Positions 33,975 to 35,765 of a stretch of 64,000 nucleotides of DNA are shown one piece after another. Each line of letters starts with the position of its first letter. Position 1 is the first letter of the stretch. The DNA is taken from the NCBI RefSeq assembly GCF_056746865.1, contig NZ_CM163382.1, one strand, 5' to 3'. Under the pieces are notes generated by a model, which had not been told where the DNA came from, ran no database searches, and worked only from the letters and a program-made list of their open reading frames with translations. Made by a program: the position numbers and the translations under genes.

Positions 33975-34160
33975 ACCTGCAAAGGGGAGTAACTTCATTG
34001 CCGGTCGATCGTCATTACGATGTGTGAAAAACCACATCCGGTCACCGGGCAACCCGAAAGGAATACGCAGACGTATTCCTTTTTTGTTGTAAGTGAGACC
34101 TTGCCGGAAGGCGAGGTCTATGCATAAAAAGCAGCGGCTGACGTCTTCCGACGTTGGCCG
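33975..34160 (+). ncRNA. alx 5' leader: yybP-ykoY-type (Mn/pH-responsive) riboswitch element
   Basis: Conserved aaaGGGGAGUAac core plus several hairpins (for example ccggaaggcgaggtc...cggctgacgtcttccg) immediately upstream of alx. Boundaries are approximate. Confidence 0.6.
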
Positions 34161-34184
34161 TTTTTTTATGTGTAAGGAACTTCT

Positions 34185-35150
34185 ATGAATACTGTCGGCA
34201 CGCCGTTGCTATGGGGCGGATTCGCTGTTGTTGTCGCCATTATGCTGGCTATCGACCTGTTGTTGCAGGGGCGTCGTGGGGCACATGGCATGACCATGAA
34301 ACAGGCTGCGGCCTGGTCGCTGGTCTGGGTGACGCTGTCGTTACTGTTTAACGCCGCTTTCTGGTGGTATCTGGTGCAAACCGAAGGTCGCGCCGTTGCC
34401 GATCCACAGGCACTGGCCTTTCTCACGGGTTATCTGATTGAGAAATCGCTGGCGGTCGATAACGTCTTTGTCTGGCTGATGTTGTTCAGCTATTTCTCTG
34501 TTCCGGCGGCGTTACAACGGCGCGTGCTGGTGTATGGCGTGCTCGGGGCGATTGTTCTGCGTACCATCATGATCTTCACTGGCAGCTGGCTGATTTCGCA
34601 GTTCGACTGGATCCTGTATATCTTCGGTGCCTTCCTGCTGTTTACCGGCGTGAAGATGGCGCTGGCCCATGAAGATGAATCAGGCATTGGCGACAAGCCG
34701 CTGGTGCGCTGGCTACGCGGTCATTTGCGCATGACCGACACCATCGACAACGAGCATTTCTTTGTGCGTAAGAATGGCTTGCTGTATGCCACGCCGCTGA
34801 TGCTGGTGCTGATTCTGGTGGAATTGAGCGACGTGATTTTCGCCGTGGATAGCATTCCGGCTATCTTCGCCGTGACCACTGACCCGTTCATTGTGCTGAC
34901 CTCAAACCTGTTTGCGATCCTCGGCCTGCGTGCGATGTATTTCCTGCTGGCGGGCGTAGCAGAACGTTTCTCGATGCTCAAATATGGCCTGGCGGTGATT
35001 CTGGTGTTTATCGGTATCAAGATGCTGATTGTCGACTTCTACCATATTCCAATCGCCGTCTCGCTGGGCGTGGTGTTTGGCATTCTGGTGATGACGTTTA
35101 TTATCAACGCCTGGGTGAATTATCGGCATGATAAGCAGCGGGGAGAATGA
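34185..35150 (+). CDS. alx: TerC-family inner-membrane protein Alx, 321 aa
   Basis: ORF 34185..35150; synteny and length. Confidence 0.9.
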
Positions 35151-35765
35151 TTCGCTGTATATTAAGCCATTACTAGAGATAACTCATTCCAGACAAAGGT
35201 GAGCTATTAATTATGTAATCGGCTTATAGCTCTTTACAAAAAGACCGCACGGGTGTTGGTGGCGTCAAAATCGCCGAAGCGTTCCCTGGAGGCCGGGGCG
35301 ACGCGCATGGATGCGCGGCGAGGGCGCATCTTACAGGGACGTTCCCTTGCGCCCGACCCGGTAGCCGCAAGGGATAAGCTGAGGGAACCGCGCAGCGGCG
35401 ATTTTGTTCGCCAGAGCCTGGGGGTGCAGGGGGCGGCGGCGATTGGCCGCCCCCTGCGCGCTCCCTGCGGCATTGACTTTATATGGCATAGCACATTAAA
35501 GGAGCGCAACCGTTCTCATATTCCAAATAGTTTTGCCCATATGTTATCTAATCAGCCTTAGTAGCCAGTCCTTCCCTCTGTTTATGTCAAATAAATGTAA
35601 CCATGAAGTTGCAAAATATGACCTCTCTTTAAAATCCAGCATTTTTCGCTTCCCGAAGCTGTAACTTTCCTTATACTCGACCTTGCAAACACTTTGTTAC
35701 ATCCTGAAAGATGCGTCGACAGAACGCACCAGGGATGTGCGACAACACAATGAAAGGATCGAAAA

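Follow-up and report, generated by a model that had tools for sequence, protein, structure and literature searches.

The alx leader of E. coli has been studied since 2001, and a crystal structure of the element now exists. Replacement of its metal core reportedly leads to the loss of the alx pH response. The element is a member of the yybP-ykoY class that is distinguished by an intrinsic termination site within P4, by a distinct L3 (UCAUUAC) and by its occurrence in Enterobacteriales only (PMC12153347), and its aptamer, a three-way junction without P2, is a recognised variant architecture in the family (PMC12153347, PMC12934788). Leader-dependent translational reporters of alx are induced 21-fold by Mn2+ and 68-fold at alkaline pH, with both responses lost when the leader is absent, whereas the transcriptional effects are about 2.7-fold (PMC10197570). 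In smFRET measurements, Mn2+ stabilises the docking of the alx aptamer, and alkaline pH sensitises this Mn2+-dependent docking, partly via the L2 capping loop (PMC12934788). The Mn2+ binding and the Mn2+-raised expression of this leader are known here from the literature only, and the same holds for the effect of pH, the mapped sites of termination and the reporter data.

The window analysed here is a stretch of 64,000 nucleotides of an E. coli chromosome, in which ygjR stops at 33902 and the ATG of alx lies at 34185, leaving a spacer of 282 bp (the earlier note had put it at 280 bp). The regulated gene, alx (34185..35150), encodes a TerC-family Mn2+ exporter; it is present in the list of open reading frames and in the RefSeq annotation, where it is labelled 'TerC family membrane protein Alx', and the K-12 record names it 'Mn(2+) exporter Alx'. 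All features of the element described below are on the + strand. The yybP-ykoY core that the earlier note recognised in the spacer is indeed there: AAAGGGGAGTA occurs as a single copy in the 64 kb, at 33981-33991 on the + strand, where shuffled sequences give an expectation of 0.01. Of 5,426 complete E. coli genomes, 5,419 have this spacer at 95-100% identity, in each case flanked by ygjR and alx, and a comparison with K-12 MG1655 reveals four differences, only one of which is in the transcribed leader. This residue, 34032, is C in the window and A in K-12, is situated in the apical loop of P3.2, and is also C in Citrobacter orthologues; a location of this variant in the pH-sensing L2 loop was considered and rejected, as L2 occupies 33996-34000. 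The remaining three differences are upstream of +1, and one of them sits in the loop of a hairpin that overlaps the promoter. Because a single transcribed base, in an apical loop, separates the two sequences, the leader in the window is the published alx riboswitch (PRE / SraF), and the earlier description of it as the known metal- and pH-responsive alx leader, and not a novel RNA, is borne out; as an already known element, it is of little biological importance as a find. Taken as a whole, the evidence makes it very probable that the 5' leader of the alx mRNA is a cis-acting Mn2+ riboswitch of the yybP-ykoY class, of the alx type of Enterobacterales, which is tuned by pH in E. coli.

We infer a transcription start (+1) at 33978 from the published numbering and termination sites. 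With this origin, each of the 14 published numbered nucleotides (A11, U17, U18, C19, A20, G23, U35, C36, A37, C58, C73/A74, A114, A115 and A137, from PMC12153347, PMC9472077 and PMC12934788) shows the correct base in the window, and termination on the alx leader in vitro, mapped to about nt 108 and nt 190 (PMC9472077), falls at 34085 and 34167, the final U of each U-tract. The upstream sequence suggests an alx promoter at 33943..33971, with a -35 hexamer TTGACT (33943-33948), a 17-bp spacer and a -10 hexamer TACTTT (33966-33971), which would be consistent with this start. ATTGAC and CATAyTTT are conserved in about 65 orthologous upstream regions; a simple promoter scan of the + strand does not call the alx promoter. 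The functional element occupies 33978-34187. The extent of 33975-34160 given in the earlier note is thus sound at its start and too short at its end, which cuts the last two pairs of P6 and leaves out further parts of the expression platform, namely the U-tract (34161-34167), the downstream strand of the P6 extension (34162-34173), the Shine-Dalgarno (SD) sequence and the start codon. The several stable hairpins that the earlier note mentioned are present as P3, P4, P5 and P6, with U-tracts behind P4 and P6.

A 10-bp inverted repeat, ACAGACCATT / AATGGTCTGT (33935-33963), straddles the -35 hexamer of alx; it begins 33 nt past the stop of ygjR, and a T-rich stretch comes after it. Judged by eye, its inner triplet is compensatory among genera (GAC/GTC, GGC/GCC, GGA/TCC, GGG/CCC, GGT/ACC and GAA/TTC), and these changes point to an RNA hairpin and not to a protein operator; the hairpin is probably the terminator of ygjR and overlaps the promoter of alx.

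On the other side of the gene, just 3' of alx, about 420 bp of GC-rich sequence (35151-35575) are unrelated to the K-12 sequence at that position. The core of this repeat, in the region 35254-35419 and about 265 bp long, is present in 1-5 places (median 3) in 5,425 of 5,426 E. coli genomes and is never annotated; further copies occupy the aqpZ-lysO interval, where some strains have them in one orientation and others in the opposite one, and the yohP-dusC interval. The core matches the Rfam orphan motif TwoAYGGAY RNA (RF01731) with 33.1 bits (E 0.0014), below the cut-off of 43, and in a larger search other copies did not reach E<=0.01. When copies are compared, one hairpin of the repeat, whose loop is AUGGAU, is seen to have changed several times in a compensatory way, and the folding z is -4.4 on the + strand and -4.1 on the - strand.

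The aptamer (33979..34105, nt 2-128) is a three-way junction of the alx type, as delimited by pairing among orthologues and by R1, an alx-type covariance model of our own, which scores 123.4 bits here and has no other match in the 64 kb. The 5' strand of the switch helix P1.1, GCAAAGG (33979..33985), is recognised by its conservation and has its partner at 34099-34104. It runs into the core of the L1 5' strand, GGGGAGUA (33984..33991, with A11 at 33988), which is supported by conservation, by identity with mntP and by the RF00080 consensus. The 5' strand of P1.2, ACUU (33992..33995), is invariant in the orthologues and pairs with AAGU (34091-34094), and the 3' strands of P1.2 (AAGU), L1 (GAGA) and P1.1 (CCUUGC) follow one another in a conserved block at 34091..34104. 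PMC12934788 cites the crystal structure of the alx aptamer (PDB 9JGM) and gives U17-A115 and U18-A114 as P1.2 pairs in it, in agreement with the assignment made here independently.

Between P1.2 and P3.1, the capping loop L2 (CAUUG, 33996..34000) takes the place of helix P2; because just 5 nt separate the two helices in every orthologue, no P2 hairpin is possible. The P3 arm (34001..34048) consists of P3.1, in which 34001-34005 and 34007-34011 pair with 34039-34043 and 34044-34048, of L3 (34012-34018), whose sequence UCAUUAC, with A37 at 34014, matches the published alx-like consensus, and of the P3.2 hairpin (34019-34038), which is supported by covariation. The P4 hairpin (34049..34090) has a base of GCAAC/GUUGU and an upper stem of 34056-34067 and 34072-34083, supported by the terminator scan and by covariation, and the same scan places a U6 tract at 34080-34085, the internal termination site B. 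Small open reading frames are present in the leader, for example at 34020-34127 (35 aa); they overlap conserved RNA helices, and the pattern of conservation is that of paired strands.

For a comparative test of this fold, species-representative genomes were scanned with the Alx protein, which yielded 80 orthologous loci in about 30 genera. In 72 of them, the exact sequence GGGGAGTA precedes alx by 172-307 nt, and an alignment of 69 distinct orthologous aptamers (A2), in which 31 pairs were modelled, reveals three invariant or near-invariant blocks, GCAAAGGGGAGTAACTT, CGTCATTACG and GTAAGTGAGACCTTGCC, with sequence-variable helices between them. GGGAGUA (33985-33991) and GTAAGTGAGACCTTGCC (34091-34104) are each identical in 69/69 orthologues, and the G that precedes the former (33984) is nearly so. 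The 31 pairs are standard in 98.0% of the cells of the alignment, compared with 25-40% when the partners are slid. Changes on both sides of a pair are seen in 13 pairs (9.0 in shuffles) and in 103 cells (17.2 in shuffles). This covariation is confined to P3.1 (5/10 pairs with double changes), P3.2 (5/6) and the base of P4, which occurs as CAAC/GUUG, CGUC/GACG or CAUCC/GGAUG; the upper P4 stem is missing in many genera. In P1.1, four of six pairs never vary among the 69 aptamers, and the remaining two deviate in one sequence each; since P1.1 and P1.2 hardly vary, they are uninformative with respect to covariation, though extremely conserved.

Two other pairings were tried and rejected. A first guess from the single sequence had paired P1.1 (CAAAGG) with the U-run past P4, and the orthologues give instead the invariant CCUUGC at 34099-34104; an alternative register, UUGCC (33998-34002) with GGCAA (34048-34052), does not agree with the covariation of CAAC with GUUG and the constancy of UUG.

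Seven orthologues (L004, L015, L016, L025, L031, L038 and L059 in our numbering) carry neither the GGGGAGTA core nor a close variant in the 330 nt upstream of alx, and several of these loci hold repeat-like insertions there. The platform sequence AGACCTTGCC is retained nearer the gene in at least L015, L016, L025, L038 and L059, and for this reason the aptamer may lie further upstream in the core-less loci.

The distribution of conservation bears on the original PRE model, according to which the element would respond purely to pH, alkaline conditions altering RNA polymerase pausing and co-transcriptional folding with no metal ligand. The gene was discovered as alkali-induced, alkaline pH raises its translational reporter 68-fold (PMC10197570), and pauses prolonged by pH were proposed in that model, as summarised in PMC9472077. 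However, the metal-core strands L1 and L3 are the most conserved in the leader, which a pure pausing device would not predict, and the pauses, when measured again, were shortened or unaffected by alkaline pH and not prolonged (PMC9472077). Metal chelation by citrate lowers the pH induction of alx from 69-fold to 9-fold (PMC10197570), and the pH response requires Mn binding (PMC12153347). A device without a metal ligand is thus highly improbable, and the reading as a Mn2+ riboswitch is retained.

The Rfam search that the earlier note proposed as confirmation did not provide it. At gathering thresholds, none of the 4,227 families of Rfam 15 matches anywhere in the window, and RF00080 is absent at E<=10 both on 401 nt round the spacer and on the bare 141-nt aptamer. 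In a positive control with the K-12 mntP leader, RF00080 finds the crystallised aptamer at 41.6 bits, which is under its gathering score of 45. Because a crystallised member of the family also falls under the cut-off, the null result on alx is a false negative, and the rule that a missing covariance-model match overturns the assignment, as the earlier note had it, is wrong and would have discarded a correct call. The alx type also departs from the architecture modelled in RF00080 in that it is without P2 and has a different L3. In the K-12 mntP leader (L003, 5462-5558), the 3' strand of P1/L1 falls outside the part that aligns with the RF00080 model.

PGAP places no feature in the alx spacer of 40 sampled RefSeq E. 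coli genomes, and the curated K-12 record likewise has none; the riboswitch is unannotated in these records because RF00080 misses the alx type. Pipelines that work with gathering thresholds probably miss both E. coli manganese riboswitches. A candidate riboswitch cannot be dismissed on a covariance-model null, and the gap would be filled by reseeding RF00080 or by giving the alx type a model of its own.

The empty search and the empty annotation of the 40 genomes and of K-12 are what would be expected if there were no riboswitch and GGGGAGTA stood by chance beside ordinary terminators and attenuator hairpins. This reading is hardly credible, given that RF00080 lacks sensitivity even for the crystallised mntP aptamer, that chance alone would place 0.01 copies of the 11-mer in the window, that about 30 genera keep the core, the L3 strand and the L1 3' strand unchanged or almost unchanged, that the helices covary, and that an extensive experimental literature, with published structures and reporters, exists on this exact sequence. 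A riboswitch is therefore the reading followed below.

The best match of the alx aptamer (33975-34088) in Rfam is a weak one, to the Streptococcus sRNA 10 family (RF02617, SSRC10; 18 bits, E 0.17). The consensus of this family includes GGGAGuag, CGUCAaUA and gaGaCc, and on account of these strands RF02617 may be a manganese-riboswitch-type leader that has been filed as a small RNA.

Downstream of the aptamer, the expression platform can be folded in two ways. In the first, the anti-P1.1 hairpin P5 (34096..34119), AGACCUUGCC-GGAA-GGCGAGGUCU, pairs 34096-34105 with 34110-34119 and has A137 (34114) in its 3' strand; it is found in the minimum free energy (MFE) fold, where it sequesters the L1 and P1.1 3' strands, and in the orthologues. 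The intrinsic terminator P6 (34133..34167) follows, with a stem of 34133-34145 and 34150-34162 and a U7 tract at 34161-34167, and corresponds to termination site D and the 3' end of SraF; it is identified by the terminator scan and by the orthologues. In the MFE fold only, P6 has a basal extension (34120..34173) in which AUGCAUAAAAAG (34120-34131) pairs with UUUUUUAUGUGU (34162-34173) and which ends one base before the SD sequence AAGGAA (34174-34179). The latter forms, with the alx start codon (34185-34187), the ribosome-binding site (RBS, 34174..34187), and in the OFF MFE fold 34174-34176 and 34179-34184 pair with the freed 5' strand of L1/P1.2 (33993-33995 and 33985-33990, respectively). 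The second conformer, ON, contains an antiterminator, the P5/P6 helix (34105..34150), in which 34105-34113 pair with 34142-34150 and 34115-34118 with 34136-34139. CCUUGC (34099-34104) can pair either with 33979-33985 or, in P5, with 34110-34116. The unconstrained MFE of nt 1-213 is -95.1 kcal/mol and reproduces the published OFF fold, compared with -79.3 kcal/mol when P1 is forced; because forcing P1 costs about 16 kcal/mol, OFF is the thermodynamic default.

Both conformers are reflected in the orthologous leaders. P5 forms in 71/71 of them, with 6-10 bp and with 91% of the aligned cells pairing, and P6 shows 94.8% pairing. In the platform alignment (A4), the OFF helices pair in 93.1% of cells, compared with 20-45% when slid, and the ON P5/P6 helix in 96.4%, compared with 34-58% when slid; the median duplex z of the ON helix is -3.3 (66 orthologues). 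Positions that form the 'loop' of P5 covary with the apex of P6, from GC to AU in 12 sequences and from AU to UA in 4, and only the ON helix explains this covariation. Since both conformers covary, the switch is a chain of mutually exclusive helices, P1.1, P5, P5/P6 and P6. These comparative data are an independent, non-experimental support for both published conformers of the platform. A terminator scan yields two sites where 0.5 are expected, namely 34056-34083, with TTGTTG behind it, and 34133-34162, with T7 behind it; at both, a GC-rich hairpin is immediately followed by a U-tract, as in intrinsic terminators, and termination itself is documented in PMC9472077. Every orthologous leader has a run of at least five T, with the U-tract 65-75 nt into the platform, and the length from platform to ATG is 79-89 nt in 68/71 leaders.

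A conserved P6 and U-tract in every orthologue and a discrete terminated species of about 190 nt might also be explained if the main product were a trans-acting sRNA, SraF (~190 nt, ending at P6), that controlled other genes through base pairing, and the proximity of alx were incidental or secondary; SraF was first detected in a small-RNA screen (PMC9472077). The spacing just described argues against this explanation, as do the location of the element, which is directly upstream of alx in each of the 72 orthologous loci where it occurs, and the nature of the conserved blocks, which are metal-core and switch strands and not a single-stranded seed. Removal of the leader abolishes the control of alx by Mn2+ and pH in cis (PMC10197570), and no trans target of SraF is reported in the alx-leader literature cited here. 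A principal function in trans is very unlikely, and SraF is better seen as the terminated form of a cis-acting riboswitch.

The mechanism best supported by these data and by the published work is as follows. P1.1 and P1.2 clamp the L1 internal loop, formed by GGGGAGUA with GAGA, the P3 arm carries L3, and P4 is a variable hairpin. Mn2+ bound between L1 and L3 would keep P1.1 shut, and the 3' strand of P1.1, CCUUGC, would be the switch. Without Mn2+ (OFF), CCUUGC would combine with GGCGAGG into P5, leaving the downstream strands free for the terminator P6, so that some transcripts would stop at about nt 190 and yield the 'SraF' RNA; in those that are read through, the ribosome-binding region would be paired, in E. 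coli with the released L1 5' strand. With Mn2+ (ON), CCUUGC would be retained by P1.1, and the loop and 3' strand of P5, CGGAAGGCG, would pair with the 5' strand and apex of P6, CGUCUUCCG; P6 would be blocked, and alx would be transcribed and translated.

The step at the ribosome-binding site is supported differently from the others. In the window, the complementarity between L1 and the RBS has 9 nt paired with a duplex z of about -1.8, and the pairing in OFF is consistent with the model of PMC12153347; the OFF state as published for E. coli depends centrally on it. Only 26/71 orthologous leaders have this pairing, and the median of the duplex z is -0.26. In constrained equilibrium ensembles of 67 leaders, the SD is not opened in ON, the mean unpaired probability being 0.52 in OFF and 0.42 in ON; the corresponding values of the window are 0.30 and 0.36. 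Because the opening of the SD in ON is absent and the L1-RBS pairing is poorly conserved, the translational step is not reproduced by equilibrium modelling, and it may depend on kinetics or vary between lineages. The alx RBS has been called 'dynamic', with an emphasis on co-transcriptional control (PMC12153347), and the equilibrium result therefore does not contradict the experiments in E. coli. As judged from the orthologous sequences, sequestration of the RBS is the least conserved part of the mechanism, with P5, P6 and P5/P6 conserved everywhere.

The covariation of the ON helix, the presence of the L1-RBS pairing in 26/71 leaders and the lack of a conserved opening of the SD at equilibrium lead to a tentative suggestion, which we consider rather doubtful: the choice between terminator and antiterminator would be under selection across Enterobacterales, the L1-RBS sequestration would be specific to a lineage, and the ancestral switch would be transcriptional or dual. 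If true, the label 'translational riboswitch' would fit only E. coli and its close relatives.

With respect to the features by which the yybP-ykoY class is recognised, the L1 loop is formed by strands 33984-33991 and 34095-34100, the latter running from GAGA, one of the two forms GAGA/AAGA of the class, into the CC of P1.1, and the conserved L3 adenosine that contacts Mn2+ is A37 (34014) in CGUCA (34010-34014), which is invariant in the alignment. The P1.1 3' strand has an alternative partner in the platform, as a switch helix should, and the element lies directly upstream of alx, a position that it keeps in 72/80 orthologous loci and that suits a class located in leaders of metal-homeostasis genes (TerC family, MntP, P-type ATPase and similar). 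The features of the alx type (PRE) are all present: the three-way junction, UCAUUAC, the P4 terminator, the P5/P6 platform with a second terminator, and alx downstream. Two properties of the canonical class are absent, the gathering score of RF00080 (45 bits), a model of poor sensitivity for enterobacterial members, and the four-way junction with P2, P3 and P4 on P1, in place of which alx has three ways; both departures are recognised properties of the alx-type variant. The case for membership is made by the core strands, by the logic of the switch, by gene context and by the published structures, and not by detection with a covariance model.

Among known systems, the K-12 alx leader (PRE / SraF) is the same locus, onto which all published helices, numbered nucleotides and termination sites map exactly and from which the window differs by the one transcribed base at 34032 (C here, A there). 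The E. coli mntP riboswitch (RF00080, four-way) has GGGGAGUA and the L1 3'/P1.1 strand GAGACC identical to those of alx; GUCA, with the A that contacts Mn, stands at the start of L3 in both, and both have a P1.1 switch helix, an ON output and a Mn2+ exporter gene. Unlike mntP, alx lacks P2 and, with a 5-nt capping loop instead, forms a three-way junction; it has UCAUUAC as L3 where mntP has ACAUACU (the family consensus), and it has a long P4 with a terminator, two extra platform hairpins with an intrinsic terminator, and pH sensitivity. When R1 is run on the mntP leader with filters off, the true aptamer is the best placed, via the P1/L1 clamp alone, at 5.8 bits (E 0.17), which was rejected as too weak to count as cross-detection; because R1 aligns mntP only through this clamp, the homology of alx to the canonical class rests on the short core strands and the published structures. 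Like classical attenuators and transcriptional riboswitches, alx links the state of the ligand to a terminator by mutually exclusive helices. Unlike classical attenuators, however, the effect on transcription in E. coli is 2.7-fold (Mn2+) and that on translation 21- to 68-fold (PMC10197570). Since the transcriptional effect is small beside the translational one, the alx element is classed as a translational or dual switch; the relative weight of termination and translation control is inferred.
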